64,000 nucleotides of DNA from an uncultured Alphaproteobacteria bacterium (GCA_902576125.1 CACGUF010000005.1:18657-82656), one strand, 5' to 3'. Positions 22,126-55,406 are shown, numbered from the stretch's first letter. The notes: a model not told the origin generated them from the letters alone. A program made the numbers and translations.

Positions 22126-22126
22126 A

Positions 22127-32083: not shown

Positions 32084-32926
32084 TTAAATTTGAAAGTATA
32101 GGAGACATATACCCACTACCACAAATATCGAAGGAACTATTCTTTTAGATGCTTTTTTTTCTTTTAAAATAAGTAGGCCAATTAAAGTGGCAAATATTAT
32201 ACTAGTCTCCCGCATCGAAGACACATAGGCAATGGGTAAATATTGCATACACCAAACAGCTAACCCATAAGCTAAAGGTGCCAAAATTCCAAATGCAAAT
32301 CCTGGGAAAAAAAGATCTTTACTAATTATTCTTAAACCGTTCTCTTTAAATAAGAAGGACGCAATTAATGTTGGTACTCCATTAAGCAAAAGCATCCAAT
32401 ATAGAAAAGTGTAAGGATTTTCAGAATGTCTAACACCGATGCCATCTACCAAAGTATAAGTAGTAATCATAATAGCTGTTAACAAACCAAGAATAAGGGC
32501 CGAATAATTAAACTTTAATTTGTCAGAGTAAGAAATTAAAAATAAACCTGCACAGACAATCAAAATAGCAATGAATCCAAATAATGAAATTTTATCAGTT
32601 AAATAAATTAAACTTATTATAGCAAGTAATAAAGATGAACTTCCTCTAGCTATAGGATAAATGAAAGATAGATCCCCATACTTATAAGAGAAGATTACAA
32701 GCAATCTATAAAAACCATGAAGAAGAGCTGATATAATAATTAATATCCAAATATAGGTAGTTGGGTAAGGAACGCTTAAAACAAGAGGGGTGAAAATAAT
32801 AATTTCAACAACAGATGTAATACCTAAAACACCAAGTGGGTTTTTATTATATTTAAGAATGCTATGACAGGCTGCATGCGATAATGCAGCAATAAATAAA
32901 AGTAAAAATAAAAAATTAACTGACAT
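32084..32926 (-). CDS. DMT/EamA transporter, phosphonate-associated type
   Basis: AAL.HA, YKYGDLSFIYPIARG, YTLVDGIGVR, RETSIIF; last gene of the ABC operon divergent from phnA. Confidence 0.8.
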   Translation of the reverse strand: MSVNFLFLLLFIAALSHAACHSILKYNKNPLGVLGITSVVEIIIFTPLVLSVPYPTTYIWILIIISALLHGFYRLLVIFSYKYGDLSFIYPIARGSSSLLLAIISLIYLTDKISLFGFIAILIVCAGLFLISYSDKLKFNYSALILGLLTAIMITTYTLVDGIGVRHSENPYTFLYWMLLLNGVPTLIASFLFKENGLRIISKDLFFPGFAFGILAPLAYGLAVWCMQYLPIAYVSSMRETSIIFATLIGLLILKEKKASKRIVPSIFVVVGICLLYFQI

Positions 32927-32949: not shown

Positions 32950-33843
32950 TTACTTCATACCTGTAAGAGTAATTCCTTCAATAAATCTTTTTTGTGCAAT
33001 TATAAAAGCAACAATTAAAGGAACTGTGACAGTAACAATTGATGCCATCATTGGGCCAAATTCATCACTGTCTATACCTCCTCTAAATTCTCTAATTCCA
33101 AGAGGCGGTGTAAAGAGATCTCTATTTCCAGTAATAACCATTCGTGGCCAGAAGTAATCATTCCAATGGGCAACAACTGAGAATATTGCAAATGCCAGTA
33201 ATGCGGGTATTGCTGTAGGCAACATAACCTTCCATACTATTGAATATTCTCCCATGCCGTCCATCCTGGCGGCATCAATTAATTCATCTGGAACTGTCAT
33301 AAAAAATTGCCGCATGAGAAAAATTCCAAATACAGATATTGTCCAGGGGAGTATTAAGGCGGAATAGGTATCAACGAGCCCGGCCTGGGCTAGCATTACA
33401 TAAAGAGGAAGTGCAATGCCGTGAACTGGTATTAGAAGACAAAATAATACCATCGAAAATACAAATTCCCGTCCATAAAATCGAAGTTTGGCAAGTGCAT
33501 AAGCACATGGTAAGGCGACAAGAACTTGAATGATAAAAATCGATAAAGTTACTATAACTCCATTCATTAAGTATCTAGGAATGGGAGCTTTTTCAAAAGC
33601 AAACCAGTAATTATAAATATACGGCTTGGTCGTACATGTTTCCTCGGAATAACCAGTTTTGACACATACTGGAAATGTTTGCACTTCTTGTGCACCTATT
33701 AAACCTCCAGAAATTGATTGAATTTCTTGTTGAGATTTTAGTGACATTGAAACCATCATATAAAATGGAAGTAAAACAAGGATTGCACCAACAATTAAAA
33801 TGCCATGTTTCCAGCTCTCACCAATATATTGTTTAGCTTGCAT
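32950..33843 (-). CDS. CUT1 (UgpE-like) ABC permease
   Basis: FLMRQFF, ELIDAARMDG EAA loop, HWNDYFWP. Confidence 0.9.
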   Translation of the reverse strand: MQAKQYIGESWKHGILIVGAILVLLPFYMMVSMSLKSQQEIQSISGGLIGAQEVQTFPVCVKTGYSEETCTTKPYIYNYWFAFEKAPIPRYLMNGVIVTLSIFIIQVLVALPCAYALAKLRFYGREFVFSMVLFCLLIPVHGIALPLYVMLAQAGLVDTYSALILPWTISVFGIFLMRQFFMTVPDELIDAARMDGMGEYSIVWKVMLPTAIPALLAFAIFSVVAHWNDYFWPRMVITGNRDLFTPPLGIREFRGGIDSDEFGPMMASIVTVTVPLIVAFIIAQKRFIEGITLTGMK

Positions 33844-34799
33844 TAATAATGAACCCTCTTCTCAATGATATATCTTTGGAAAAAAGTTAATATCAATATA
33901 AAACCAATAAAGACAACAGTAATAGCTGCTCCTATACTCGTTAAGTTTTGTTGGATAGCTTTTTCAAAAATTGCATACATCATAACGTAGGTAGTTTTAG
34001 ATGGGCCGCCCTTAGTAAGTATTTCAATTGTATCAAAAACTTGAAATGTTCTAATTGTTGTAATTGTTACTACAAACAAAGTTGTAGGTCCAAGCATTGG
34101 CCAAGTTACAAGTTTAAATTGTTCCCAGGTTGATTTAGCTCCATCCATTTCTGCTGCGTGATATAATTCTCGAGGTATACCTGTAAGGCCTGCTAAATAT
34201 AAAACCATATTAAAACCAAATGCTTGCCAAATTCCTATAAAACATATTGTCCAAATTGCTGTATTTTTTTGCTTCAGCCAATAAGGAAAATCCATATTAT
34301 TTGCACATGCCACATGATACCAGCTTTGTTGTGAGTCAACCCATGGTAACCAATGAAAACCAAGAATAAATTCTCTTACACCTCCGCAACCATTAGCTAA
34401 AAAACTATTTACTATACCAAGTGTTGGGTGAAGAGTGAATTCCCATGCAATTGCCATAGCAAGAAGAGTTGCCATAACAGGAAGAAAGAAAATTGTTTTA
34501 TAAATATCGGCTCCAAACCTTAGTGAATTTAATAGCATAGCAGCACACAAACCAAGTACAACGGAGATAGGAACTACAACAATTACATAAGTTGCTGTAG
34601 CCCAAATCATTTTTACATATGTTTTTCTTGAAAACATTTTTTCATAATTTTCAAGTCCGATCCATTCGAGAGATTTATTACCTAAATTATAATCAGTAAA
34701 AGAAATTCCACCTGCAAGAAATAAAGGAAAAATTAATATAATAATCATTAATATTATTGCAGGTGCAATAAACCAAATATGTGCTTTGGAATTATGCAT
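33843..34799 (-). CDS. CUT1 (UgpA-like) ABC permease
   Basis: GLENY, FFLP, IPRELYHAAEMDGA, TWPML, GGP. Confidence 0.9.
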   Translation of the reverse strand: MHNSKAHIWFIAPAIILMIIILIFPLFLAGGISFTDYNLGNKSLEWIGLENYEKMFSRKTYVKMIWATATYVIVVVPISVVLGLCAAMLLNSLRFGADIYKTIFFLPVMATLLAMAIAWEFTLHPTLGIVNSFLANGCGGVREFILGFHWLPWVDSQQSWYHVACANNMDFPYWLKQKNTAIWTICFIGIWQAFGFNMVLYLAGLTGIPRELYHAAEMDGAKSTWEQFKLVTWPMLGPTTLFVVTITTIRTFQVFDTIEILTKGGPSKTTYVMMYAIFEKAIQQNLTSIGAAITVVFIGFILILTFFQRYIIEKRVHY

Positions 34800-35925
34800 T
34801 ATTAAATTGAACCCTTTTTCCTTCTTTATTAAATAATAAAGCTTTATTAGAAACTCTTCTAATGTTTACTTTTGAACCACTAGAAATCTCATGTGTTAAT
34901 TGTGGTATACCTCTGACAATTATTCTATTCATTCCATCTTCTGTATTTACATGAAAGAAAATATCTGACCCTAAATTCTCTCTATAAGAAACTGTTGCAC
35001 TAAAAGTATTTTCATCACTTTGATTCGTAATTTCTAAATGTTCAGGTCTAATACCAATATTTAGCTCTAGATTTGTTTCTGAACTTTTTCTTTTTAAGGT
35101 GAGATTTAGTAAGCTTACAGCCCCACTTGAGTCTGATGAACCTCTAAAAATATTAATTTTAGGACTGCCGACAAATTGAGCCACACTTAGTGATGAAGGG
35201 TTATCATATACTTCTTGGGGCGTATCAAGCTGTAATAAATTTCCATCAATCATAACAGCCATACGAGAAGACATTGTTAATGCTTCAGCTTGATCATGTG
35301 TTACATAAACAAATGTAGTTTTAAGAGAATTGTGAAGCTCTGATAACTCTGATCTCATATGAACCCTAAGTGCCGCATCTAAATTTGATAGAGGCTCATC
35401 CATCAAAAATGCAACAGGCTCTCTCACCATTGCTCTACCAAGAGCTACTCTCTGTCTTTGACCACCAGATAGTTGACCTGGCTTTCTATCAAGTAGCTCA
35501 GAGATTTTAAGTGTCTCAGAAGTTTTACTGACTAATTGATTTATAGATTCTGTTTTTTGTTTCTTATTTGGAGACAAATTTCCAATTAAAGGTAATCTTT
35601 CAAATGTACTATAATCTCTAAGTCTAAGAGGGGTTTCTAAATTTCTTCTTACTGTGAGATGAGGATACAGAGCATAAGACTGAAACACCATTGCTAGGTC
35701 TCTTTCACTAGCTCTAATTCTGTTTACATTTTTATTATCAATTAAAACATCACCAGAAGTTTGTTGCTCAAGACCTGCTATAATTCGAAGTAAGGTAGAT
35801 TTGCCACAACCAGACGGACCAACTAATGTTAAAAATTCACCTTCTATTATATCTACGTTTAGATCTTTTAATACCTGGGTAGATCCAAATGATTTTGAAA
35901 TATTTTTAAGTGATATTGTGCCCAT
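34792..35925 (-). CDS. CUT1 (UgpC/MalK-like) ABC ATP-binding protein
   Basis: GPSGCGKST, VFQSYALYPH, LSGGQRQRVALGR, DEPLSNLDA. Confidence 0.92.
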   Translation of the reverse strand: MGTISLKNISKSFGSTQVLKDLNVDIIEGEFLTLVGPSGCGKSTLLRIIAGLEQQTSGDVLIDNKNVNRIRASERDLAMVFQSYALYPHLTVRRNLETPLRLRDYSTFERLPLIGNLSPNKKQKTESINQLVSKTSETLKISELLDRKPGQLSGGQRQRVALGRAMVREPVAFLMDEPLSNLDAALRVHMRSELSELHNSLKTTFVYVTHDQAEALTMSSRMAVMIDGNLLQLDTPQEVYDNPSSLSVAQFVGSPKINIFRGSSDSSGAVSLLNLTLKRKSSETNLELNIGIRPEHLEITNQSDENTFSATVSYRENLGSDIFFHVNTEDGMNRIIVRGIPQLTHEISSGSKVNIRRVSNKALLFNKEGKRVQFNNA

Positions 35926-35957
35926 TTGCCCCCCCTTTTTTTATATATACTTTGTAG

Positions 35958-36012
35958 TAAATTTTATGATTTTTTAAAATGAATTTATTTCATTTTTATC
36001 TAAATTTTATGA
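35958..36012. promoter_or_regulatory. candidate operator in the divergent ABC/phnA promoter region
   Basis: Inverted repeat AAAATGAA-TTTAT-TTCATTTT (35976-35996) flanked by direct repeats TAAATTTTATGA (35958-35969, 36001-36012); AT-rich background weakens it. Confidence 0.35.
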
Positions 36013-36088
36013 ACAAAAACTTAAATTATTATTGAGTTTAAGGAACATATAACTATAAATTCAATTTTTAAATTATTTATTAATCATT

Positions 36089-37330
36089 GTGTCTGAAAAT
36101 TTAGTAATTAATAACAGAGAATATCCAAGCACATTTTCTAAGACAGCTATAGTTATTTGTCTTGATGGAAGCCAAAAAGAGTATCTCGAAGAGGCATCAA
36201 AACTAAATCTTACACCTAATATTGATGCATTAATTTCTAATGGACAGAGTTTACTTGTTCATAGCGCTATCCCAAGTTTTACAAATCCAAATAATATATC
36301 AATTGTAACAGGGCAACCTAGCTCTGTTCACGGCATATGTGGTAATTTCTTTTACACTCCTGAAACAGGGGAAGAAGTTATGATGAATGATCCAAAATAT
36401 ATGCGTGCGCCAACAATATTTGAAAAATTTTATAATTCTGGATCAAAGATTGCTCTTGTTACTGCAAAAGATAAACTCAGAACTCTTTTGGGCAATGGTT
36501 TAGGATTTGATGATAATCGAGCAATATGTTTTTCGGCGGAAAAATCTGATCAGGCAACAAAAGAACATAATGGTATTGATAATGTTAATGAATGGTTAGG
36601 AATGCCTGTACCGGAAGTATACTCTCAGGGTCTTTCCGAATTTGTCATGGCAGCTGGAGTAAAATTACTTGAGGAATTTAAACCAAAAATAATGTACTTA
36701 TCTACGACAGATTATATTCAACATAAGTATGCACCAGGAAATGAAGTGGCTAATAAGTTTTATGCTATGTTTGATAAATATATTGGCCTTTTAAATAAGG
36801 GCGATGTATCAATAATTATTACGGCTGATCATGGTATGAAACCTAAATCAAAAGACGATGGTTCACCCAATGCAATTTTTTTACAAGACTATCTGGATAA
36901 AAAATTTGAACCAAATGTAGCAAAAGTTATTTTACCAATAACTGATCCTTACGTTGTTCATCATGGATCATTAGGTTCATTTGCAACAATTTATCTTGAA
37001 GATAAAACTAAAGTTAATGACGTTATAGAATCAATTAAAGAAATTAAGGATATAGAGGTAGTTTTAACTAAAGACGAAGGTTGCAATACATACAATCTAC
37101 CACCTGATCGCATGGGTGATATAATATGTATGTCCTCAGAATTTATGACCATTGGATCATCGGAAGATAAACATAATCTTTCCGGATTAAATGAACCTTT
37201 ACGTTCTCACGGTGGTTTGCATGAGCGAGAGGTGCCTTTTATATCAAATCTAAAAATTCAAAATTACAATAATGAAAAACAGCTATATAATTATGATGCA
37301 TTCTACTATGCAATTAATGGAGCTCTGTAA
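36089..37330 (+). CDS. phnA: phosphonoacetate hydrolase
   Basis: [53 protein letters not shown]; GTG start. Confidence 0.95.
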
Positions 37331-38769
37331 TGGAAAAGAAAATGATTAATGAAGCTATGCGAATTGCTGGCAAAAAAGTAACTTTTGAAAAAACAATTGA
37401 TGTTGAGTATCCTTTTACGGGTGAAGTCATTGGTACGGTTCCTGCAGGAAATGCTGAACATGCAAAACAAGCTCTTGAAATTGCAGCAAACTATCAACCT
37501 AAGTTGACAAGATATGAAAGACAAAAGATTCTTCAAACAGCCGCAGAGGTACTTGTAAAAAGAAAAGAAGAAATCTCTGATATCATTACTTTAGAGCTTG
37601 GGATTTCAAAACAAGACTCTCTATATGAAGTCGGTAGGGCATTTGATGTTTTTTCTTTAACTGCACAACTTTGTATTCATGATGACGGAGAAATTTTTTC
37701 TTGTGATTTAACTCCTCATGGAAAAGCGAGAAAAATATTTACAATAAGAGAACCATTAACAGCAATTTCTGCAATTACTCCTTTTAATCATCCGTTAAAC
37801 ATGGTGGCGCACAAAATTGCTCCTTCTATTGCAACGAATAATTGTACTGTTTGTAAACAGACAGAGTTAACTCCATTAACAGCAATGGTTCTTGCGGATG
37901 TTTTATATGAAGCTGGTCTACCTCCTGAAATGTTTTCTGTTGTTACAGGATGGCCACAAGATATTGGTTCAGAAATGATAAAGAATTCAAATATTGACCT
38001 TATTACTTTTACAGGAAGTGTTGGAGTTGGAAAACTAATTGCTGAACAAGCAGGATATAAAAGAACCGTTCTTGAACTTGGTGGAAATGATCCTCTAATT
38101 GTTTTAAATGATTTAGATTCAGATGATTTAAAGAAAGCTGTTGAATTAGCAGTAACTGGGGCAACAAAAAATTCAGGACAACGCTGTACAGCAGTTAAAA
38201 GAATACTTGTACAAGAAAAAATTGCTGATCAGTTTGTTGAACTGGCTTTGGAAAGAGCTAAAAAAATTAAGTTCGGAGACCCAATGAGCATGGAAACTGA
38301 TTTAGGTACCGTTGTTAATGCTCAAGCAGCTGAACTGTTTGATAAAAGAGTTTCAATGGCAGAAGGAGATGGTGCGAAAATTTTATATCATCCTGGAAGA
38401 AAAGATGCGTTATTGCCTCCTATAGTAATTGATAATGTTGATCCTAAAAGTGAATTAGTATTGGAAGAAACTTTTGGACCTGTCATTCCAATTATACGCG
38501 TTCCAAATGATGATGAATCTGTCATCAAGATCTCAAATTCAACTGCTTTTGGATTATCTTCCGGTGTGTGTACCAATAATTTTATGAGAGCAAAAAAATA
38601 TATTCAAAACTTAAATGTTGGAACTGTCAATATTTGGGAAGTACCTGGATATAGAATTGAAATGTCTCCTTTTGGGGGAATTAAAGACTCGGGACTGGGA
38701 TACAAAGAGGGTGTTATTGAGGCGATGAAGAGTTTTACTAATGTGAAGACTTTTTCACTTCCTTGGTAA
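37330..38769 (+). CDS. phnY: phosphonoacetaldehyde dehydrogenase (NAD-dependent)
   Basis: ALDH motifs [28 protein letters not shown]; [10 protein letters not shown]; coupled to phnA. Confidence 0.92.
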
Positions 38770-38824
38770 AAACCTAGGCGTTCTCTAAAATCTAAAAATT
38801 TCTGTGGAAAAAAATAGTTATTTA

Positions 38825-38853
38825 TTGAAATATTTGTTTAATAAATTTGTAAC
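38825..38853 (+). promoter_or_regulatory. Pho-box-like triple repeat upstream of the SBP gene
   Basis: TTGAAAT-ATTT-GTTTAAT-AAAT-TTGTAAC with 11-bp period; resembles boxes at 55389, 63299 and 63316. Confidence 0.5.
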
Positions 38854-38911
38854 GATTTTATTCTACGTGTTAGATTGAATTAAAATTTATATTAATAATT
38901 GGGAGGATTAA

Positions 38912-40165
38912 ATGAGAAAATTAATTACAGGATTAGCAGCTATATTAGCTTTTGGCTTCTATGGTTCTGTTAATTCAGCTAAATCTATTGAAATAGAAGT
39001 AGCTTATCCTTACTCAGGTTTATTTGATGTTACTTATCAAGCTATTATGCCAGAGTTTGAAAAAGCACATCCAGATATTCAAGTAAAGTTTAGAGCAACT
39101 TACGAAAACTATGAAGATGCAACTGCTACAATTTTAAGAGAAGCAACTTCTGGTAATCTACCTGATGTTACAATGCAGGGTCTTAACAGACAAGCTCCTC
39201 TAGTAGATAAAGGTATTGCAAAATCTTTAGAACCATTCATTGCAAAAGAAGCTGATTTTGAAAAAGACGGTTACCATTCTGCAATGTTAAGTCTTTCAAC
39301 ATTTGGTGGAGAGGTTTATGGTTTACCATTCTCTGTATCAACTCCTGTTGGATACTATAACATGGATCTCTTAGCTGCAGCAGGCATAGATAGCATTCCA
39401 ACTAACTGGGATGAAGTTATTGATGCTTGTGGAAAATTAGAAGCAGCTGGAAGTGGAACTTTATATTTCGGTTGGAACATTACAGGTAACTGGTTCCACC
39501 AAGCATTAATGCATACTCAAAATGTTAAAATTGTTGAAGATGGAAAAGTTAACTTAGGCGGAGATGCTGGTTTAGCAACTTTACAACAAATGCATGATAT
39601 TATGAGCGGATGTAATATGCCTAACTATTCAATTGCTGATGGTCAAGCGGCATTTAATGCAGGTACTATTGGCATGATGTTCTGGTCAACTTCAAGCTTA
39701 GGTTCAGTAAATGCTGCAAAAGCAGATTTCGTTCTTAAGACGGCTCCATTTCCTGGAATGGCAGGCGTAAACAATGGAACTCCAGCAAGATTACCAGCAG
39801 GTGGAAATGCAGCAATGTTAACTTCTACTTCTGATGATCCAGCAAGAGTTGATGCGGCTTGGACATTCTTGAAGTTTATTACTTCTGGTATTGGCGCAGC
39901 ATTAGTTGCGGAGACAACTGGTTATGTTCCACCAAACAAAGCAGCTAACGATTTATTAGGTGATTTCTATAGTGCAAATCCAAATAAACTTACTGCGGTT
40001 GAACAGCTTCCACTCTTAGCAGATTGGTTCGCATATCCTGGTGAAAACGGACTAGCAATTACTCAAGTAATCTATGATTACACTGAGGAAATTGCTACTG
40101 GTAGTGCTGATGATATGGGTGATCTTCAAGAAGAGATGATGGAAGAAATAAACGATCTTCTGTAA
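38912..40165 (+). CDS. CUT1 (UgpB-like) ABC substrate-binding protein
   Basis: Signal peptide; YGLPFSVSTPVGYYN, PAGGNA, AAWTFLKF, TGYVP; strong GGGAGG RBS; partner of 32950-35925. Confidence 0.88.
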   Translation: MRKLITGLAAILAFGFYGSVNSAKSIEIEVAYPYSGLFDVTYQAIMPEFEKAHPDIQVKFRATYENYEDATATILREATSGNLPDVTMQGLNRQAPLVDKGIAKSLEPFIAKEADFEKDGYHSAMLSLSTFGGEVYGLPFSVSTPVGYYNMDLLAAAGIDSIPTNWDEVIDACGKLEAAGSGTLYFGWNITGNWFHQALMHTQNVKIVEDGKVNLGGDAGLATLQQMHDIMSGCNMPNYSIADGQAAFNAGTIGMMFWSTSSLGSVNAAKADFVLKTAPFPGMAGVNNGTPARLPAGGNAAMLTSTSDDPARVDAAWTFLKFITSGIGAALVAETTGYVPPNKAANDLLGDFYSANPNKLTAVEQLPLLADWFAYPGENGLAITQVIYDYTEEIATGSADDMGDLQEEMMEEINDLL

Positions 40166-40197
40166 ACAAAGATCATTTAATTATTAACTTTTTAATG

Positions 40198-40225
40198 CAG
40201 CGGCTTTATAAAAGCCGCTGTTTTT
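40198..40225 (+). terminator. terminator or mRNA-stabilising hairpin after the SBP gene
   Basis: CAGCGGCTTT-ATA-AAAGCCGCTG followed by TTTTT. Confidence 0.85.
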
Positions 40226-40252
40226 ATTTAAAAAAAAACTGATGGAGGAAAA

Positions 40253-41332
40253 ATGCCACTTATAACAACTACAATAGGCGCTTATCCAAAACCTAAAAAT
40301 ACCCCAATTAATGATTGGTTTTTAGGCACTAAATCTGAAGAAGAAAAAAAAGCTGCTAAAGGATTATTGGCAAACTGGTCACCTGGTGCTTACGAAAAAG
40401 CAATAGAGAAAGCTGGTGATAATGTAGAAAATTTATTTTTAGATGCAATTAAAGAAGTTATACTTGATCAAGTCAGTGCTGGCATTGATGTTCCAACAGA
40501 TGGTGAAGTAAGAAGAGAAAGTTATGTTTTTCACCAATGTCGTTTTTTAAATAATATAAGCTTTGAAGAAGTAACTCATAAGTCAGTAAGACAAGGAGCC
40601 TTTGAAGCAAGTGTTCCAACAATAATTGGTCCAGTTTCAAGCAAAGAGATACGTATGCCATTAGATTGGAAAAGTGCTCAACAATTTACTAAAAATCCGG
40701 TAAAGATTACCCTTCCTGGTCCAATGACGATAACTGACTCAATTGCAAACAACTACTATGATGATCTTAAAAAACTGGGCTTTGATTTAGCATTAGCTCT
40801 AAACGAAGAAATAAAAGCACTAGTTGATGCTGGTTGTAAATATATTCAAATTGATGAACCAGTTTTTGCAAGAAAACCAGAAGAAGCTAATACATATGGC
40901 ATGGAGAACTTAGAGAGAATGATGCATGGAATTCCCAAAGATGTGCAAAGAGTTTGTCATATTTGTTGTGGTTATCCAAACTGTCTTGATTCTGAAGGAT
41001 ATAAAAAAGCAGACTTAGATGCATATGATAGAATTGCTACTTTAGTTGATGACTCTACTATTGATGAAGTATCTTTAGAGGACTCTCACAGACATAATGA
41101 TTTAAATCTTCTAGAAAAATTTAAAAAAACAAAAGTTATTTTTGGATTTATTGACATTGCTAAAAGTAGAATGGAGTCTGTAGAGGAAGTGAGAACTAGA
41201 ATGAAAGACTCTTTAGAACATATTGATGAGCATCGTTTAATTGCTGCCCCAGATTGTGGTTTAGGATTCTTTACAAGAGAGCAAGCAATTGAAAAAATGA
41301 CAATCTTATCAAAAGCAGCAAAATCAATTTAA
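40253..41332 (+). CDS. cobalamin-independent methionine synthase II family protein (MetE catalytic core only)
   Basis: IGAYPKP, TDGE.RR, LPGPMT, IQIDEP, HIC and PDCG Zn ligands; 359 aa, lacks the N-terminal folate-binding barrel. Confidence 0.85.
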   Translation: MPLITTTIGAYPKPKNTPINDWFLGTKSEEEKKAAKGLLANWSPGAYEKAIEKAGDNVENLFLDAIKEVILDQVSAGIDVPTDGEVRRESYVFHQCRFLNNISFEEVTHKSVRQGAFEASVPTIIGPVSSKEIRMPLDWKSAQQFTKNPVKITLPGPMTITDSIANNYYDDLKKLGFDLALALNEEIKALVDAGCKYIQIDEPVFARKPEEANTYGMENLERMMHGIPKDVQRVCHICCGYPNCLDSEGYKKADLDAYDRIATLVDDSTIDEVSLEDSHRHNDLNLLEKFKKTKVIFGFIDIAKSRMESVEEVRTRMKDSLEHIDEHRLIAAPDCGLGFFTREQAIEKMTILSKAAKSI

Positions 41333-41336
41333 AATA

Positions 41337-42449
41337 ATGTGGAACTACTATAATCCTGTAGAAATCATCTTTGGAGAAAATAAATTTAAAGAAGTACATT
41401 CAGCACTTAAAAATAAATCCTATATAATTATTACTCACCCTGAAGAAATTTTTAAAAAATATAGTGATGAGTTGAATTCTTCTTCTAATCCACCACTGTC
41501 TATTATGACGGATGTTCAACCTAATCCGGATTATAAAGATATTTTAGAACTCCAAAAAAAATTTTCTCATATTAAAGAAAATGTTGAATATATTTTAGCA
41601 ATTGGCGGAGGTTCTGTAACAGATACAGCAAAAGCTATTGCTGCTTTTAAAGATAAACAAGAATACTTAACAGATTTTGTAAGAAATAAAAAAAGTCCAC
41701 AAGTTGAAAACCCTATAAAAATCATTGCTGTTCCCACAACATCTGGAACATCCAGTGAGCTTACTTGTTGGGCTACAATCTGGGATAAAGAAAAAAATAA
41801 CAAACTCTCTTTAGCTCATAAAACACTTTATGCAGAAAAAACAATTATCGATCCATCTATTATGATTGATAAACCTCTTGGTCTCACAATATCTACTGGC
41901 CTTGATGCTTTATCTCACTCTATGGAAAGTATTTGGAATGTAAATGCTAACCCAGTTTCAGCTTCACATGCGATTCAAGCTTCGAAGTTAGTTTTAGATA
42001 ATTTACCTTTGCTAGCCAAAGATTTAAATAATATTGAGTTACGTTCTAACATTGCACTTGCATGCGTTCATGCAGGTTTGGCTTTTTCAAATACAAAAAC
42101 AGCCATTGCTCATAATCTCTCTTACCCTATTACACTTAATTATGGAATCCAACATGGTATTGCTTGTTCATTTACACTCCCTATTATTACAAGAAGCATG
42201 ATTGGTATTGATCAAGTTGCTGAGGAAAGATTACAATTAATTTTCAATAATAACTTAGAAGCTGGGTCATCAAAATTGAGTGAAATTATGCGCTCTTTAA
42301 ATGTTCCTTTAAATTTAAATGAAATAAAAGTTCCTGTTCAAGAATGGAATAATATAGTAGATGATGCTTTTTTAGGAGAACGTGGTAAAAACTTTATTGG
42401 TAATAAAGAATCTTTTACTAAATCTGCTCAACAAATGGGTTTATATTAA
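41337..42449 (+). CDS. iron-containing alcohol dehydrogenase, phosphonate-associated (hydroxyethylphosphonate dehydrogenase/PhpC-like)
   Basis: GGGS..DTAK, PTTSGTSSE, DALSH..ES.W, AH..SY, HGIAC; context inside phn cluster. Confidence 0.8.
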   Translation: MWNYYNPVEIIFGENKFKEVHSALKNKSYIIITHPEEIFKKYSDELNSSSNPPLSIMTDVQPNPDYKDILELQKKFSHIKENVEYILAIGGGSVTDTAKAIAAFKDKQEYLTDFVRNKKSPQVENPIKIIAVPTTSGTSSELTCWATIWDKEKNNKLSLAHKTLYAEKTIIDPSIMIDKPLGLTISTGLDALSHSMESIWNVNANPVSASHAIQASKLVLDNLPLLAKDLNNIELRSNIALACVHAGLAFSNTKTAIAHNLSYPITLNYGIQHGIACSFTLPIITRSMIGIDQVAEERLQLIFNNNLEAGSSKLSEIMRSLNVPLNLNEIKVPVQEWNNIVDDAFLGERGKNFIGNKESFTKSAQQMGLY

Positions 42450-42451
42450 AC

Positions 42452-43558
42452 ATGAAAAAAAATTTTAGATTTTATGACAATAGACAAAAATATTTGTTAT
42501 TTGTTACAACAACAAATGAAAAAAATCAAATTGCTGATGCTATTCGTCCTCATGTAAATAGAATCAAACCACAAAAACCTGGAATAAAATTATTTGATGC
42601 GGGTATGGGTGATGGATCATTATTAATGAATGTTATGCGTCAATGTCATTCTGCAAACCCTACCATTCCATTATTGGTTGCAACAAAGGAAATTAGTATA
42701 GAAGATGTAAGATTAGGTTTAGAAAAATTACCAGACAGATTTGTCGAACATAAAAATACTGTTTTTGTAATTTCAAATTTACATTATGCAGAAGCTGCAA
42801 ATTTAAAATCTAAAAATGAAAAGAAACAACAAAAAATTAATTGGAATGTTATAAAACTTAAAGGAGATACTTCACTTGAGTTTGCACAGCAGTTAAGAAA
42901 ACAAAATGAATTCTTAGAAAAAAAATGGAACATAGAAATTAATGAAAAAACAGGAAACCCAACTTATAAAGAACCTTCCGTTATGGTTATTTATAGAGAA
43001 GACCAAGAATTCAATGTAAATGAATTAATTCCGATAAAAAATAATTCTGAAAATAAATTTGATCTCATAATTGCATCCCAGCCTTATAGATCACGAATTT
43101 CAGCTGAAAAAAAGGTAAAATATGTTATTGAGCCTATGATTAGGGCTTTAAAATCAAAGGGAAAGTTATTAACCATTCATGCTGCTGGAAAAGATCCAGC
43201 AAATGACATTGTTAAAAAATTATGGCCAAAAGAAAAACCCTTTCCTTCTCTTGGTAACAGCATAATTTCATATTTAAAGAAAAATTTAGATAAAGATTTA
43301 CTAAATAAATTATTTTTTGGTGAAAAAAGAAACATTAAATGTAGACTAAGAGCTTTGCCTAATGAAATCAGTGGAAGTATTGCAACATCATTAATTTTTT
43401 CAGCATGGAATGCCTCAATATATGTTAATCAAATGGATGACGACAAAGTCATGAAAGTTGAGAAAACAAAAAATTATGAAAAAATTGTTCAAAATGTTGT
43501 TGCAAAGAATAAAGGTCTTTATTTTAATAATGAAATATTTGTAATTGGAAAAAAATAA
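42452..43558 (+). CDS. uncharacterised SAM-dependent methyltransferase-like protein
   Basis: LFDAGMGDG (motif I-like) and FDLIIASQ (motif IV-like). Confidence 0.55.
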   Translation: MKKNFRFYDNRQKYLLFVTTTNEKNQIADAIRPHVNRIKPQKPGIKLFDAGMGDGSLLMNVMRQCHSANPTIPLLVATKEISIEDVRLGLEKLPDRFVEHKNTVFVISNLHYAEAANLKSKNEKKQQKINWNVIKLKGDTSLEFAQQLRKQNEFLEKKWNIEINEKTGNPTYKEPSVMVIYREDQEFNVNELIPIKNNSENKFDLIIASQPYRSRISAEKKVKYVIEPMIRALKSKGKLLTIHAAGKDPANDIVKKLWPKEKPFPSLGNSIISYLKKNLDKDLLNKLFFGEKRNIKCRLRALPNEISGSIATSLIFSAWNASIYVNQMDDDKVMKVEKTKNYEKIVQNVVAKNKGLYFNNEIFVIGKK

Positions 43559-43560
43559 AT

Positions 43561-44358
43561 TTACTCACTCTCAAACCAGTTTACTTCTGATTTTAAAAAA
43601 TCTTCACTATGAACAATTATAGAGTCGTCTGATAATAAAATAACATTATAATTAGGATCTGTATTTGCAGTTCCAAGTCTGTATTTATCAATAAAGTTAG
43701 AAACTAGGGGCTGCCAAGTACTTCGAGGAGAAGAAAAATTTATACCTAAATATTGCCCAGAGCTTGTAATATGTTGATGACCAAAAAAAATATGCTCAAT
43801 AGAATTTTTAAATTGTAATAAAATTTTTTTAAACTCTTCTCTTTGTACAAGGCCAATAGAGTCACTTTTTTTATGACCTAACGCCAAGGGATTATGATGC
43901 ATAAATAAAAAAATTTTATTTTGTTTTTCTTTTTGTAATATATCTATTAACCAGTGTTGTCTTTTTTCACATAAGTAACCTTCATCTTTACCTGCTAAAT
44001 TTGTATCTAGGAAAATAAATGTTTTATCATTATCTTTTTCTACATACTGAACAAAACCATTTTTATCAGTTTTGATATCTGGAAAATTTTTTTTGAAATT
44101 TTCTCGGTTATCATGATTACCTAAAATTAATTTAGGTTTTAGATGTTTAGGTAAATTTATCTCTACTAATATATCTTTAAAAATTTGGTAAGAGTTGTTC
44201 TGTCCAAAATGTGTTATATCTCCTGTAATTATAAAATGATCAGCATTTATGTGATTTTCTTTAATATGTTCTAATGCCAATTTAAATCTTTGTTTTGAAT
44301 CAATCCCATGTAGTAATTTAGGCTCAATATGCGGATCAGATAAATGTATAATTTTCAT
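43561..44358 (-). CDS. metallophosphoesterase, GpdQ/CpdA-like phosphodiesterase
   Basis: SDPH, TGD, LGNHD, MHH, FGHQH. Confidence 0.88.
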   Translation of the reverse strand: MKIIHLSDPHIEPKLLHGIDSKQRFKLALEHIKENHINADHFIITGDITHFGQNNSYQIFKDILVEINLPKHLKPKLILGNHDNRENFKKNFPDIKTDKNGFVQYVEKDNDKTFIFLDTNLAGKDEGYLCEKRQHWLIDILQKEKQNKIFLFMHHNPLALGHKKSDSIGLVQREEFKKILLQFKNSIEHIFFGHQHITSSGQYLGINFSSPRSTWQPLVSNFIDKYRLGTANTDPNYNVILLSDDSIIVHSEDFLKSEVNWFESE

Positions 44359-44467
44359 AAAAACTTGATATTTTTTTTAAATTATTCACATTATCAATTT
44401 GAGAGTTGACTATGTAAATATTGATCAACCAATTTTATTTTCAGAATTATATAAAAAACAATTTGAA

Positions 44468-45100
44468 TTATAAAGTGGTTTTAAAATAAATATATTTTTT
44501 AAACTCTTTTTGTAAATCAATACTTACTCTAGCATGCACTTTTCCTTGTCTACCTTGAAAAGAGCTTTTTTCTTCAATTGGAAAAACTCCTTCATGCCAA
44601 ATATTTGGGTGTATATAAAGTCCCTGTGATCCATCAAAATAAAACGCCTTAAAATCACCAACTTGTACGTCATCTCCAGGTAAAGCTAATGGTGAAATAA
44701 AAGGGCTTTTAGTGGAGGGATAAAAGAGCTGTCCACCATCAGGGTGGTAATTCACATGCCAGATATATATATGGTCAGGTTTTTTATATTCTGTTGCTGG
44801 ATCACTCGTTGGTGGTAAAGCATGTCCTAGTATATATTTACCATCTACTTCGTAGTCACTATTGTTATGTTGAACAGCATTATTTTGTCCCCACAAAGTA
44901 CTACCTTCCCACCAAGTATCAAAAGATCCTTCCGTACTCCCTCCTTCATTTCCTGTTCCTTTATCAATCTCTCGCCAACCTTTTTTAGGCCACGTTACAA
45001 TTTCAATGTCACTATTTTCATAGGAGTCAATTAAGTATCCATATCCTTTAAGTGTTTCATTGGTCGCTTTAACTAGAAGAATTTCAACAGCATCACTCAT
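44468..45100 (-). CDS. ureidoglycolate lyase (AllA)-like cupin
   Basis: ATNETLKGYG, HPDGGQLFYP, GLYIHPNIWH pattern typical of the AllA fold; directly downstream of phnW. Confidence 0.65.
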   Translation of the reverse strand: MSDAVEILLVKATNETLKGYGYLIDSYENSDIEIVTWPKKGWREIDKGTGNEGGSTEGSFDTWWEGSTLWGQNNAVQHNNSDYEVDGKYILGHALPPTSDPATEYKKPDHIYIWHVNYHPDGGQLFYPSTKSPFISPLALPGDDVQVGDFKAFYFDGSQGLYIHPNIWHEGVFPIEEKSSFQGRQGKVHARVSIDLQKEFKKYIYFKTTL

Positions 45101-45106
45101 AGGAAA

Positions 45107-46210
45107 TTAATTTTTAACATTAATATTTAATTCACTTACTACTTCTTTAACAGCTGTGATTGTATCTGTCATATCTTGTTGATTTAAATTACCAATGCAT
45201 CCAATACGAAAAGTATCAGCCACGGTTAATTTTCCAGGATAGATTAAAAAATCTTTATCACTTAACGCATTATAAAATTGATGAAAATTAAAATTAGGAT
45301 CATTCGGTTGTTTGAATGTAATGATAATTGGTGCTTGCAGTTCATCAGGTAGTAATTGCTCAAACCCAATTTCTTTCATACCATCACAAATAATTTTACA
45401 ATTATTTTTATATCGTTCATGTCTTCCTGCAACACCACCTTCCTTTTCATGTTCAGCAATTGCTTGATTGAAAGCTGCCAAGACATGTGTTGGTGGGGTA
45501 AAACGCCATTGTTTATTTTTTTCCATTGCTGTCCATTGATCATACAAATCTAAACTTAAGGAATGACAATTTCCTTTTGCATTTTCAATTACTTGGTTCT
45601 TCATTAAAATAAATCCAACACCAGGCACACCCTCTAAGCACTTATTCGATGAAGCGGCAACAGCATCAAAAGTAACATTTTTACTGCTAAGTGGCAGGGC
45701 TCCAAAGGCACTCATAGCATCAATAAACAAGGATAAGTTTTTTTTCTCAACCAAGCTCGCAATATCCTCAATAGGATTAAGAATTCCTGATGTTGTCTCA
45801 CAATAAACAGCAAAAACATGTGTTAATTGTGAATTCGCATCAATGATATCTTCTAATTTTTTTATATCATGAGGCTCATGTTCAGCAACCTCATATTCAA
45901 TTGTGTTTCGACCTAAATAAGAGCACATTTTTTTCATTCGTTGTCCATATGCACCGTTAATTAAAATTAAAATATTTGCATCTTTTGGTGTCAGTGAACT
46001 TATCATGGACTCAACAGCAAAAGTTCCACTTCCCTGCATAGGGACACACTGATACTTTCCTTCTCCATCAATCAATTTAATTAAAGAGTCTCTGATGGAT
46101 TGATTTAAATCTATAAATTTTTGATCACGTGAACCCCAGTCATGAAGCATTGCCTCTTTTGTGCTCATAGAAGTTGTTAGTGGCCCAGGTGTTAATAATT
46201 TTTTATCCAC
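45107..46210 (-). CDS. phnW: 2-aminoethylphosphonate--pyruvate transaminase
   Basis: LLTPGPLTTS, DWGSRD, QGSGTFAVE, CETTSGILN, SSNKCLEGVPG, WRFTPPTH, IYPGKLT; GTG start. Confidence 0.96.
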   Translation of the reverse strand: MDKKLLTPGPLTTSMSTKEAMLHDWGSRDQKFIDLNQSIRDSLIKLIDGEGKYQCVPMQGSGTFAVESMISSLTPKDANILILINGAYGQRMKKMCSYLGRNTIEYEVAEHEPHDIKKLEDIIDANSQLTHVFAVYCETTSGILNPIEDIASLVEKKNLSLFIDAMSAFGALPLSSKNVTFDAVAASSNKCLEGVPGVGFILMKNQVIENAKGNCHSLSLDLYDQWTAMEKNKQWRFTPPTHVLAAFNQAIAEHEKEGGVAGRHERYKNNCKIICDGMKEIGFEQLLPDELQAPIIITFKQPNDPNFNFHQFYNALSDKDFLIYPGKLTVADTFRIGCIGNLNQQDMTDTITAVKEVVSELNINVKN

Positions 46211-46231: not shown

Positions 46232-48220
46232 TTATTTGATTCCATATTTATTTTTAAGTTTATTACTTCCAGCTTTTATAATTCTGTCAGCAATTATAGA
46301 TATAAAAGCTACACACAAACCAGCAACTAAACCCCTTCCTATATCTGCTTTAGTAAGACCTATGTAAACTTCTTGACCAAGATCTCTAGTTCCTACCAAT
46401 GCAGTAATTACTAACATAGATAAGGCAAGCATTATAGTTTGGTTTATGCCTAATAAAATTTCTGGTAAAGCCAAAGGTAGTTTTATTTTAAATAATAATT
46501 GCCTTTGAGAACATCCACTAATTAATGCTGCTTCTACAATTTGACTATTAATATTTCTTACACCATGAGCAGTATATCTTACCGCAGGAGCCAGTGCATA
46601 AAGTATCACAGCAATCATTGCTGTAAAATCGCCAACACGAAAAAGCATTACAACCGGTATTAAGTATACAAAACTTGGCAAAGTTTGAAGGGTATCAATA
46701 AAGGCCGTTAAAATTTTATTTGCTCTGTCGTTTAAACCTGCCCATACTCCAAGTGGGATACCTATAATAGAAGCAATGATTACACTAGAACCACACAAAT
46801 AAAGCGTTATCATAGCTTTTTCCCAGAGACCTGTAGTAACTATAAAAATTGACATTAATAGGCATAATAATGCTAATTTTAATTTTCCAAAATACCATCC
46901 GATAATTGTAATAATAAAAATAAACCAAGGCCATGGGATCCCCAGAAAGAATTTTTTTATCGGCAGCATAAAAAAAGTTAACAAAGTTATTTTAAAACTC
47001 TCTAGATTATCAAAATAATTAATATTTATATATTTGACCAATTCCTCCCAGAATAATGAAGTATTAATCATTAACTCTTTTGGAAATAACTTAAAAAAAG
47101 TAAAAAAAGTACCCAGAATATAAATTCCAATTATATATAGAATTAATAAAATTATTTTTTTATATTTATTATAAAAAGTTTGCTGAGTTTTTTTTGAGAG
47201 AGTTGGTAAATTAGCAAAAGATTGACTTAGACGATCTAAAGCAATTGCTATAACAACAATTGCTATTCCTGATTCTATACCTCCGCCAATGTCTAATCTT
47301 CTTAGTGAGGCTAATACATCATAGCCCAATCCACCTGCACCAATCATAGAAGCTATGATAACCATATTAAGTGATAGCATAATCACTTGATTTACACCTA
47401 TAAGTAAAGTTGGTTTAGAGACTGGGATTAGCACCTTCCACATTAATTGTCTTTCTGTGCAACCAGACATGAGCCCACTCTCTTTTAATTGTGGATCAAT
47501 GTTGTTAAGTGCTAGAAGTGTAGTTCTAACCATTGGGGGCATTGCATATATTATTGTGGCAATTAATGCAGAAACTGGCCCAAAACCAAACATTACAAGT
47601 ATTGGAACTAAATAAGCAAAGACTGGAACTGTTTGCATGAGGTCTAATATTGGGGTTATAATTTTTTCTAAAATTTTTGACTTATAGGACAATATCCCTA
47701 ATAATATCCCTAGGACAACCCCAATTGGCACAGCAATAATGATTGAAGATAATGTAATCATTGAACTTTGCCATTGATCAAATACAGCCAAATAAACTAT
47801 TGATAGAACAACGAGTATTATTAAAAACTTATCTCTTGTATAAAGCGCAAGGGTAAAAAAAATACCAACAACTGAAATCCAACTTAGTGGTTCCATTATT
47901 TGGATTGCATCTTGACCTTGTCCTTTTAATATTCCTTTAGAAAATATAGCTAAAACTATATTGTAAGGCTGTTCTATAATCCAAGCAAAGAAACGAGTAA
48001 GATCATTAAAAGTAAATAACCAAAAATGTGCTTCGTTAATTAACCATTTAACAAATGTTGTAGTATAAATAGCAAAAGGAAATGAATAATGCTTTGGATA
48101 TTTTACTAACCATTTACTATCAAAGTAGTTTGCTATTTCTTTGCCATACCAATACAAAAGAAACGTTAAGAAAGTTAGAGAAATAAAAATAATTTTATTT
48201 GATATTTTTTTATTCTGCAT
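46232..48220 (-). CDS. ProW-type ABC permease with duplicated domain (quaternary-amine family)
   Basis: Two copies of QT.P.F.YL.P and G.NQ.IML.L.M.VI; 662 aa. Confidence 0.9.
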   Translation of the reverse strand: MQNKKISNKIIFISLTFLTFLLYWYGKEIANYFDSKWLVKYPKHYSFPFAIYTTTFVKWLINEAHFWLFTFNDLTRFFAWIIEQPYNIVLAIFSKGILKGQGQDAIQIMEPLSWISVVGIFFTLALYTRDKFLIILVVLSIVYLAVFDQWQSSMITLSSIIIAVPIGVVLGILLGILSYKSKILEKIITPILDLMQTVPVFAYLVPILVMFGFGPVSALIATIIYAMPPMVRTTLLALNNIDPQLKESGLMSGCTERQLMWKVLIPVSKPTLLIGVNQVIMLSLNMVIIASMIGAGGLGYDVLASLRRLDIGGGIESGIAIVVIAIALDRLSQSFANLPTLSKKTQQTFYNKYKKIILLILYIIGIYILGTFFTFFKLFPKELMINTSLFWEELVKYININYFDNLESFKITLLTFFMLPIKKFFLGIPWPWFIFIITIIGWYFGKLKLALLCLLMSIFIVTTGLWEKAMITLYLCGSSVIIASIIGIPLGVWAGLNDRANKILTAFIDTLQTLPSFVYLIPVVMLFRVGDFTAMIAVILYALAPAVRYTAHGVRNINSQIVEAALISGCSQRQLLFKIKLPLALPEILLGINQTIMLALSMLVITALVGTRDLGQEVYIGLTKADIGRGLVAGLCVAFISIIADRIIKAGSNKLKNKYGIK

Positions 48221-48230
48221 ATTTTAAATT

Positions 48231-48254
48231 TAAAAGGGGGATATAAATCCCCCT
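48231..48254 (-). terminator. hairpin after the betaine-type SBP gene
   Basis: AGGGGGAT-N4-ATCCCCCT stem with a T run on the minus strand, between SBP and permease. Confidence 0.7.
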
Positions 48255-48275
48255 AGAAAAATTAAGATTAAAGGA

Positions 48276-49223: not shown

Positions 49224-49348
49224 TTTACCTCCCAGTAATAAATTTTATTAAAACATTAAATAAAACTAATGAATAAAACTACTAAAAACGAACAATTATT
49301 CTTAAATTTTCTAATAATTATTAAGTTTATTAATAAATTTTACAATAT

Positions 49349-50359: not shown

Positions 50360-50361
50360 CT

Positions 50362-51126: not shown

Positions 51127-51190
51127 TTTATTATGTATGTTTAATAAGTATAATGCAAAATGGTCAATAAAAAACTATTATATAAAATTT

Positions 51191-51205
51191 TTATGTTAAA
51201 CATAA
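51191..51205. promoter_or_regulatory. palindromic candidate operator in the SDR/kinase divergent region
   Basis: TTATGTT-A-AACATAA perfect inverted repeat. Confidence 0.35.
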
Positions 51206-51248
51206 TTGTAAAATATATTTTAAAAAGTTAGAAGTTTAAAAGGTTTTT

Positions 51249-52172: not shown

Positions 52173-52178
52173 AATAAG

Positions 52179-53107: not shown

Positions 53108-53109
53108 TA

Positions 53110-54680: not shown

Positions 54681-54686
54681 TAGTTA

Positions 54687-55349: not shown

Positions 55350-55388
55350 TGGGCGCTTATAAAACTTTTAATTAAAAAAGAAAGAAAT

Positions 55389-55406
55389 GTTACAAATATG
55401 TTACAT
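55389..55406 (-). promoter_or_regulatory. Pho-box-like direct repeat upstream of DUF47-pit
   Basis: Minus strand ATGTAAC-ATAT-TTGTAAC, 11-bp period, ~40 nt before the start codon. Confidence 0.68.

Follow-up and report, generated by a model that had tools for sequence, protein, structure and literature searches.

The window analysed here is a stretch of 64,000 nucleotides from an uncultured Alphaproteobacteria bacterium (GCA_902576125.1, CACGUF010000005.1:18657-82656), and the subject of this report is a gene module at positions 32950 to 44358 that joins genes for phosphonoacetate breakdown to an ATP-binding cassette (ABC) importer of the CUT1, Ugp-like kind. The G+C content of the window is about 31%, the source assembly is 1.26 Mb (72% complete) and the genomes of its relatives are 1.0-1.6 Mb. 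Homologs of one window protein are labelled 'Candidatus Pelagibacter sp.' by their sources, and the DNA is found again in marine metagenomes from 14 studies. On these grounds the source genome appears to be of the SAR11 type.

The core of the module consists of eight genes. Those for two permeases and the ATPase (permE-permA-ATPase, minus strand) are divergent from a plus-strand series of phnA, phnY and the genes for a periplasmic solute-binding protein (SBP), a MetE-like protein and an iron-containing alcohol dehydrogenase (Fe-ADH). This series runs on into the gene of a methyltransferase-fold protein, with gaps between successive genes of 0, 142, 87, 4 and 2 nt, and meets a convergent esterase gene that closes a minus-strand series after phnW and a cupin-like gene (Table 1). 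Families were assigned by Pfam and NCBIfam scans of the open reading frames (ORFs) of the window, with scores set against the curated equivalog cut-offs. The ORFs cited in a first-pass annotation of this DNA, whose interpretation is partly supported by the present results, were all recovered in the ORF listing at the positions given there; its gene list was incomplete, the MetE-like and methyltransferase-fold ORFs having been skipped.

Table 1. Features of the window around the phnA-phnY module, and phosphonate-family genes next to MetE-like genes at other loci. Scores are followed by the family cut-off. G and L numbers denote genomes and loci.
Feature	Position	Strand	Basis
EamA/DMT membrane protein	32084..32926	-	Pfam EamA; TIGR03340 118 bits, cut-off 288
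UgpE-like ABC permease, CUT1 type	32950..33843	-	BPD_transp_1; UgpE 128 bits, cut-off 297
UgpA-like ABC permease, CUT1 type	33843..34799	-	BPD_transp_1; UgpA 102 bits, cut-off 335
UgpC/MalK-like ABC ATPase with TOBE domain	34792..35925	-	ABC_tran + TOBE_2; UgpC 388 bits, cut-off 432
Divergent intergenic region, 163 nt; putative promoter region	35926..36088	.	8 orthologous spacers aligned
PhnA, predicted phosphonoacetate hydrolase	36089..37330	+	TIGR02335 470 bits, cut-off 407.55
PhnY, predicted phosphonoacetaldehyde dehydrogenase	37330..38769	+	TIGR03250 786 bits, cut-off 635.65
Periplasmic CUT1 solute-binding protein	38912..40165	+	SBP_bac_1/8; UgpB 63 bits, cut-off 411
MetE-like catalytic-domain protein, 359 aa	40253..41332	+	Meth_synt_2, PF01717 9.7e-34
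Probable PhpC-type Fe-ADH (group III)	41337..42449	+	PF00465 + ADH_Fe_C; TIGR03405 364 bits, cut-off 423.7
Predicted class-I S-adenosylmethionine (SAM) methyltransferase-fold protein	42452..43558	+	AF2 model + Foldseek
GpdQ/SpdA-like cytoplasmic metallophosphoesterase	43561..44358	-	Metallophos; SpdA 178 bits, cut-off 400
Cupin-like protein, 210 aa, weak ureidoglycolate-lyase similarity	44468..45100	-	PF04115 1.3e-10
PhnW, predicted 2-aminoethylphosphonate-pyruvate transaminase	45107..46210	-	NF010006 522 bits, cut-off 296; TIGR02326 477 bits, cut-off 400.8
OpuA/ProU-type ABC system	46232-50359	-	Family scans (Pfam, NCBIfam)
L021, MetE-like neighbour: phnA			49.5% identical
L030, MetE-like neighbour: PhnS2			493 bits, cut-off 392.75
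L034, MetE-like neighbours: TmpA, TmpB	L034:8026-14437		TmpA 528 bits, cut-off 400; TmpB 313 bits, cut-off 300
L035, MetE-like neighbour: TmpA	L035:6209-9050		578 bits, cut-off 400
L028, MetE-like neighbours: TmpA-like, TmpB-like	L028:6525-9025		Below cut-off
L033, MetE-like neighbour: TmpA-like	L033:6393-9038		Below cut-off
L037, MetE-like neighbour: TmpA-like	L037:6531-9000		Below cut-off

PhnA, PhnY and PhnW all score above their NCBIfam equivalog cut-offs. Residues 7-411 of PhnA cover positions 3-406 of the 408 in TIGR02335, and the protein, which belongs to the Pfam family Phosphodiest, is 47-53% identical to products of phnA genes clustered with phnY and/or a PhpC-type dehydrogenase gene in other Proteobacteria. 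Having passed the cut-off, it is predicted to cleave phosphonoacetate to acetate and phosphate. The score of PhnY with TIGR03250 compares with 422 bits for the next family and 307 bits for models of betaine-aldehyde dehydrogenase (BADH). Together, PhnA and PhnY are 47-63% identical to their counterparts in bona fide phnA/phnY clusters.

The Fe-ADH carries both domains of its family (PF00465, 1.1e-34; ADH_Fe_C, 3.2e-32). Its top family, Phn_Fe-ADH (TIGR03405), lies more than 200 bits above the runner-up family (156 bits), and the choline dehydrogenase model GbsB also matches (123 bits). The gene clusters with phnA-phnY in all ten SAR11 loci showing both. Outside SAR11 a class-level search found homologs in 16 of 401 alphaproteobacterial genomes; in the best nine loci of these positive genomes the homolog adjoins phnA and/or phnY three times, no CUT1 binding protein or MetE-like gene was found in any of the nine, and the ATPases nearby are 26-33% identical to that of the module. 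The enzyme is probably of the PhpC type and a candidate dehydrogenase of 2-hydroxyethylphosphonate (HEP). According to Piazza et al. (Protein Sci 2026, PMC13576164), PhpC-type pf00465 enzymes and the unrelated PbfG oxidise HEP to phosphonoacetaldehyde, degradative clusters often combine phpC with phnX or with phnY-phnA and lack phnW, and phnY-phnA clusters without phnW are interpreted as specific for HEP. Genes of the phpC type outside biosynthetic clusters had been noted earlier (Lockwood et al. 2022, PMC9381506). The first-pass annotation had proposed that the dehydrogenase is of this type and feeds PhnY-PhnA by oxidising HEP, and both the best-matching family and the reported activity of the class agree with it; as a general principle, such a step is already known (PMC13576164). 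No gene for phosphoenolpyruvate mutase (pepM), which the annotation had likewise not found, and none for PhnJ or for the betaine-homocysteine methyltransferase (BHMT) family was found in the whole assembly, and because the assembly is incomplete these absences are not proven.

The four parts of the importer find their best matches in UgpE, UgpA, UgpC and UgpB and are not of the PhnD, PhnS or AepX types, in agreement with the annotation. Since every Ugp score falls below its cut-off, the importer is called Ugp-like and not Ugp. It shares with Ugp (UgpBAEC and UgpQ) the architecture of two permeases, a MalK-like ATPase with TOBE domain and an SBP_bac_1/8 binding protein, and differs from it in that the SAR11 system is joined to genes of carbon-phosphorus (C-P) hydrolysis. 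By inspection, the binding protein begins with a signal-peptide-like segment. It is 87-94% identical between two SAR11 families, and the UgpE-like permease is 88-97% identical across the seven compared SAR11 loci with the full core. One genome of the set, G029, has a second, more Ugp-like UgpB/A/E set, inserted divergently beside the esterase gene (L019:4658-7670; UgpB 135 bits). This set has no ATPase of its own and could share the MalK-like ATPase of the module.

The binding protein was found in 36 of 61 related genomes, with 87-100% identity apart from one variant at 59%. Eight loci from these 36 genomes were examined. Seven contain the eight-gene core in the same order, three of them in the genus of the window and four in a second SAR11 family; the eighth lies on a contig of 5.2 kb that shows just ATPase-permA-permE-SBP. 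In the three loci of the genus the core is followed by the methyltransferase-fold gene, the esterase gene, the cupin-like gene and phnW. None of these follows the core in the second family, where the core is flanked by an M24 peptidase gene at one end and by housekeeping genes, that for thioredoxin among them, at the other. A search of five module-carrying genomes of the second family for PhnW, PhnS2, PhnD and the esterase gave no true PhnW (matches of 22-23% identity in four), no PhnS2 above cut-off and a PhnD-family protein in one. The CUT1 system is therefore the sole recognisable candidate importer in four of the five. Standing alone in this family as an island, with neither phnW nor an esterase gene beside them, the eight core genes thus behave like a unit complete in itself.

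The distribution of single genes over the 61 genomes separates two parts within this unit. Orthologs of the binding protein (E <= 1e-30) occur in 36, of the MetE-like protein (E <= 1e-130) in 34 and of the dehydrogenase (E <= 1e-100) in 37, and all 34 genomes with the MetE-like gene also hold the other two. The MetE-like gene is therefore found only together with the importer. Two genomes with the binding protein but no MetE-like gene are explained by contig edges, 611 nt from the gene in G004 and 8 nt after it in G024. Three have the dehydrogenase only. One of these (G018) is cut at the contig start and the other two, G019 and G035, carry a variant cluster, EamA next to phnA-phnY-ADH-methyltransferase and then esterase-cupin-phnW, in which no importer ABC gene, binding-protein gene or MetE-like gene was found. 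The phnW series of G019 opens with PhnS2, PhnT2 and PhnU2, all above cut-off, followed by a putative aminophosphonate oxidoreductase just below its own (602 bits, cut-off 632.8). Therefore the phosphonate enzymes are independent of the CUT1 importer. From co-occurrence and variants together it follows that the dehydrogenase gene (and, in the genus, the methyltransferase-fold gene) goes with phnA-phnY, and that the genes for the ATPase, the two permeases, the binding protein and the MetE-like protein travel as a set of five.

The esterase is a calcineurin-like metallophosphoesterase (PF00149, 1.8e-16). Inspection of the translation shows no signal peptide and the motifs DPH, GD, GNHD, HH and GHQH, which we take to be the metal-binding set DxH / GD / GNHD / H / GHxH. 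Its best solved relative is GpdQ of Enterobacter aerogenes (2zo9), although at E 9e-18, and with the SpdA score far under its cut-off, it is not close kin of either. In the window the gene lies 3.4 kb from that of the binding protein, on the opposite strand and downstream of phnW and the cupin-like gene. Among relatives in the genus it is just 55-74% identical, its neighbours about 88-96%. Three of the five second-family genomes have a homolog of 34-35% identity elsewhere in the genome.

A different arrangement is found outside SAR11. A class-level search with the binding protein was positive in 15 of 401 alphaproteobacterial genomes (E <= 1e-40), and 12 outgroup loci were examined, the two weakest matches (35% and 30% identity) being left out. 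Nine contain an operon of ATPase-permA-permE-SBP-esterase, the binding protein being 43-65% and the esterase 30-38% identical to those of the window; no esterase was found in the other three (L050, L058, L059). The MetE-like protein has a single weak match of 22% in these loci (L058), and the flanks of the operon differ among the four loci annotated. When five outgroup genomes were searched with the window esterase, the best match in the whole genome was in all five the gene that follows the binding-protein ortholog. These operons and best matches support an ancestral importer-esterase unit, in which the outgroup operons encode a putative cytoplasmic diesterase, a possible parallel to the Ugp/UgpQ system. 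UgpQ itself is a GDPD-family enzyme, unlike the metallophosphoesterase here. Conservation of the unit suggests phosph(on)ate esters as the cargo of this importer family. In SAR11 the unit has been dismantled and its importer wired into phnA-phnY. The pairing of importer and esterase put forward in the first-pass annotation thus holds for the outgroup operons, and does not extend to the conserved SAR11 core, outside of which the esterase gene lies.

The MetE-like protein consists of the catalytic domain only, without the folate-binding N-terminal half. TIGR01371 (MetE) matches with 87.5 bits against a cut-off of 929.95 and only over model positions 457-750, a full MetE having about 750 aa. Alignment with the best solved relative (3rpd, E 7e-46) retains His-x-Cys, Glu and Cys at positions that we take to be the zinc ligands of MetE. 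The protein is a probable zinc-dependent thiol (homocysteine) alkyl or methyl transferase. A class-level search gave 19 places, counting the window's own gene, with relatives 46-54% identical; the tally includes an unpublished genome (G299) among the weaker matches, on which no result depends. Surroundings were annotated at 17 places, and seven of them have phosphonate-family neighbours (Table 1). Neither a corrinoid protein nor a MesX-type partner was found beside the MetE-like gene in the annotated loci. The core folate-independent methionine synthases MesA-D (Price et al. 2021, PMC7857596) likewise have a single MetE catalytic domain with the zinc-ligand positions; the subfamily of the SAR11 type is instead embedded in uptake clusters for phosphonates or quaternary amines. 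Another comparison for the enzyme is BHMT, of which the assembly yielded no family member.

At five alphaproteobacterial loci (L028, L033, L034, L035 and L037) a MetE-like gene of 46-53% identity stands next to TmpA or a TmpA-like gene, sometimes with TmpB or a TmpB-like gene, a pairing of which no description was found in the literature searched. The Tmp-type genes are directly upstream of the MetE-like gene in all of these but L034, and the same four loci hold Opp-like or PotD-like importers together with choline sulfatase, BetA, GcvT/DAO or BKACE genes. By their NCBIfam naming TmpA and TmpB convert trimethyl-aminoethylphosphonate to glycine betaine and phosphate. The simplest reading, by analogy, is that betaine-type donors supply the methyl group that the subfamily transfers to homocysteine. 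In a tree of 21 MetE-like sequences the copies of the SAR11 module form a well-supported clade of their own, outside the TmpA-linked and PhnA-linked clades. The donor is therefore not transferable from those neighbours and may differ; its assignment by transfer was rejected for the reason that the SAR11 copies are not nested in those clades. The source genome has two more catalytic-domain-only MetE paralogs on other contigs (L031 and L038), at G000:C2:28175-29215 (48%) and G000:C7:49668-50519 (36%). The former adjoins an Opp-like importer, a CehA/McbA-type metallohydrolase, alanine racemase, an arginase-family gene and AlaDH.

Taken together, gene content, the family membership of PhnA, PhnY and PhnW, synteny and co-occurrence define a conserved module, and its probable function, which we favour with moderate confidence, is the import and degradation of a C2 phosphonate. 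The CUT1 system would take up a small compound of this class, most likely HEP itself, or else a small ester or a head-group derivative of HEP or 2-aminoethylphosphonate (AEP). The PhpC-type dehydrogenase would oxidise HEP to phosphonoacetaldehyde, PhnY would convert this to phosphonoacetate, and PhnA would cleave the C-P bond to give acetate and phosphate. In the genus of the window PhnW would provide a second entry, from AEP to the same phosphonoacetaldehyde. The GpdQ-like esterase, as the ancestral partner of the importer, may unmask phosph(on)ate esters, for which the first-pass annotation had put forward glyceryl-AEP and sugar-HEP esters as candidates, and the MetE-like enzyme may remove or harvest an alkyl (methyl) group of the cargo or of a by-product onto a thiol such as homocysteine. 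The importer ligand, the activity of the dehydrogenase on HEP and the substrates of the esterase and the MetE-like enzyme are the parts that we infer.

Two known systems are close to this proposal. The HEP-degradative clusters of PhpC with PhnY-PhnA (PMC13576164) also have a pf00465 dehydrogenase gene next to phnY-phnA and no pepM, and the second SAR11 family shares their phnW-less, HEP-specific pattern. What sets the SAR11 module apart from the nine homolog loci is the CUT1/Ugp-like importer with the embedded MetE-like gene. The PhnW-PhnY-PhnA pathway of AEP degradation, served by AepXVW or PhnS2T2U2 (Murphy et al. 2021, PMC8316502), has all three of its enzymes in the genus of the window. 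It differs in that the window has a CUT1 system at phnA-phnY in place of an AepX-type importer, and in that the second family carries the module without PhnW.

Several observations weigh against the import and degradation of a C2 phosphonate by a single module. The dehydrogenase scores 364 against the 423.7 bits of the TIGR03405 cut-off and shares just 35-42% identity with its homologs in phn clusters elsewhere. In a PDB sequence search the best solved relative of the binding protein scores 66 bits, and the relatives are a mixture of sugar and glycerol-3-phosphate binders, all distant; because the protein is only distantly like any solved one, its ligand is not readable from sequence. A plain HEP route leaves the MetE-like enzyme without a task. 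In the second family the module has no esterase gene next to it, and two of the five genomes searched (86% and 92% complete) gave no homolog. No phnA, phnY or dehydrogenase gene was found within about 9 kb of any of the 12 outgroup loci, where the ligand of importer and esterase may be an ordinary phosphodiester, and G019 and G035 retain phnA-phnY-ADH without the importer or the MetE-like gene.

The last two points also speak for a rather unlikely alternative, the nearest to the favoured reading in probability, in which one operon interleaves two functions that scavenge phosphorus independently of each other. The ABC system and esterase would then use glycerophosphodiesters such as glycerophosphocholine, the MetE-like enzyme would take methyl groups of choline or betaine, and phnA-phnY-ADH (with or without phnW) would act on phosphonates entering by other routes. 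This agrees with outgroup operons of importer and esterase that have no phosphonate gene nearby and no conserved flanks, with the variant that has its own PhnS2/T2/U2, with the more Ugp-like UgpBAE set by the esterase gene of G029 and with the TmpA/TmpB, choline sulfatase, BetA and GcvT/DAO genes around relatives of the MetE-like gene. It does not agree well with the closed island of eight genes in the second family, which lacks an esterase gene beside it and, in four of five genomes, a PhnD or PhnS2 importer. The module has no choline-to-betaine genes, and the binding-protein and MetE-like genes are inserted within the phnA to ADH series, in its direction, with gaps of 87 and 4 nt after them.

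Two further explanations give the MetE-like enzyme a definite task. One, which we regard as improbable, takes the cargo to be an O-alkyl (e.g. O-methyl) phosph(on)ate ester. In SAR11 the MetE-like enzyme would move the methyl group to homocysteine, leaving free HEP and methionine, and most Alphaproteobacteria would use the GpdQ-like esterase for the same end. In its favour, dimethyl phosphate and methylphosphonate monoesters are substrates of GpdQ, and DhpI is a phosphonate O-methyltransferase. The zinc-ligand positions are intact, and the importer is partnered by the esterase in the outgroups and by the MetE-like gene in SAR11, as if one had been substituted for the other. The genus of the window, however, retains both genes, relatives of the MetE-like gene associate with N-methylated and not O-methylated substrates, and no report of natural O-methyl HEP in seawater was found in the literature searched. 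The other, which is more improbable still, is that the enzymes are mis-named and form a route from glycerophosphocholine to dimethylglycine. PhnA would be an NPP-type enzyme cleaving the diester, the dehydrogenase would oxidise choline, PhnY betaine aldehyde, and the MetE-like enzyme would demethylate betaine. All eight genes would have a role, and the placing of PhnA in Phosphodiest, the GbsB match of the dehydrogenase and the BADH matches of PhnY fit with it. Against it, PhnA and PhnY score above equivalog cut-offs designed to separate them from such relatives and have the stated identity to bona fide cluster genes, and the phosphonate-linked model scores three times as high as GbsB with the dehydrogenase. 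What probability remains falls to some explanation outside all of these.

The methyltransferase-fold ORF gave no match in Pfam, NCBIfam or a PDB sequence search. Its AF2 model (pLDDT 80.5) has at least 500 Foldseek matches in PDB at E <= 0.001, the matches listed being methyltransferases; the best is histamine N-methyltransferase (1jqe, E 5.7e-11, TM 0.66 normalised to the target), and HvrF with pantaphos (9e72) is also matched. The model thus points to a class-I SAM methyltransferase fold. The gene follows that of the dehydrogenase in every locus of the genus, whether or not the importer is present. The protein is common in marine data (6027 of 8000 scored candidates at E <= 1e-5), and in the second family a homolog of 33% identity lies 1.7 kb from the module. 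The EamA protein is weakly like the 'phosphonate utilization associated' DUF6 family; its gene is next to phnA in L017-L019, L060 and L061 and not beside the module in L013, of the second family. The cupin-like gene stands between phnW and the esterase gene in all six genus loci showing both (L017-L019, L060, L061, L063).

The module sits in a phosphorus-stress island. In relatives of the genus phnW is divergent from a PhnZ-like gene. In the window the two are separated by an insertion at 46232-52502, not at that place in six relatives, with the OpuA/ProU-type ABC system (fused double permease), an SDR gene, a kinase-like gene (GntI 129 bits, cut-off 357) and a 107-aa ORF. The OpuA-type system was considered as a conserved importer of AEP and rejected, being absent beside phnW in G022, G015, G029, G019, G035 and G018. 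The PhnZ/TmpB-like HD-domain oxygenase (52547-53631, plus strand; TIGR03276 206 bits, cut-off 214.6) is followed by a 173-aa ORF for which no family match was found, and relatives have kept both genes, which there diverge from phnW; no TauD-type partner gene was found nearby. Beyond it (53628-63272) lie genes for a Pit-like permease, a PhoU-like protein, ArsC, an OlsF-like acyltransferase, Ppk1, Ppx, an MIP channel, a glycosyltransferase and an LpxH-like metallophosphoesterase, the last two resembling the lipid-renovation pair of SAR11. At 19490-23176 there is another ABC system. Its binding protein has a weak likeness to the PhnS type that binds AEP (63 bits), its permease is fused, and its ATPase matches PhnT2 best (298 bits, cut-off 457.7).

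When the eight orthologous spacers between the divergent genes were aligned, one block, TTTTATGAACAAA, was largely conserved across both families. As a regulatory motif it was rejected, because the window shows no enrichment of it (26 matches with <=2 mismatches, 17.5 +/- 4.6 expected; 26 was reached by 5 of 100 shuffles), and no Pho-box is claimed. Metatranscriptome contigs of >=90% identity, from four marine runs in three studies, lie on the permease, ATPase, phnA, phnY, binding-protein and MetE-like genes, and two of them cross the phnA/phnY junction. They are consistent with expression at sea; such libraries may hold DNA, their depth cannot rank genes and a contig over two genes is not the same as a single transcript. 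The region from the dehydrogenase gene to phnW (41210-46000), where the genes are less conserved, is nearly uncovered by contigs of the four runs, which proves nothing. Contig depth climbs sharply at the binding-protein gene, and an internal promoter or processing site in the 142-nt gap before it (38770-38911) is possible.

No published description of the module was found in the literature searched, which is not proof of absence, and supplementary tables, including S1/S2 of PMC13576164, lay outside the search. A survey of SAR11 binding proteins (PMC11485210) has no mention of phosphonate, aminoethylphosphonate, glycerol-3-phosphate, UgpB, HTCC7211 or glycerophospho. New here are a CUT1 importer as a phosphonate-linked transporter in SAR11, the ancestral coupling of this importer to a GpdQ-like esterase, a MetE-like gene found only with the importer and an eight-gene core conserved in two SAR11 families, in one of them as a stand-alone island. 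One binding protein and three soluble enzymes make a small system that can be tested directly.

The gene phnA is among the commonest phosphonate genes of ocean metagenomes, with about 11% of genome equivalents in GOS (PMC3266647) and 30-57% of mesopelagic organisms (PMC6852614), far above what cultured marine strains explain. The module, being present in more than half of the SAR11-type genomes sampled (34 of 61), could account for much of the oceanic phnA. Should HEP or its small esters prove to be the cargo of the CUT1 system, the system would be a class of phosphonate transporter unlike PhnD, PhnS and AepX, and would open to the most abundant marine heterotrophs a route to the HEP pool of dissolved organic phosphorus. 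HEP would be used without C-P lyase, and therefore no ethylene or methane would be made. That the MetE-like gene is restricted to genomes with the importer suggests a connection, so far unrecognised, of organophosphorus scavenging with methyl or methionine metabolism. It is conceivable, if doubtful, that the protein stands at the head of a lineage of its own among folate-independent homocysteine methyltransferases, and that its donor is an imported methylated organophosphorus compound, for example N-trimethyl-2-aminoethylphosphonate or an ester with a choline-type head group. In that case SAR11, which is reported to be without MetE and MetH (PMC12366255), would couple the scavenging of phosphonates or phosphodiesters directly to the synthesis of methionine, and the same family would carry out the betaine-demethylating step in the TmpA/TmpB clusters of other marine Alphaproteobacteria.

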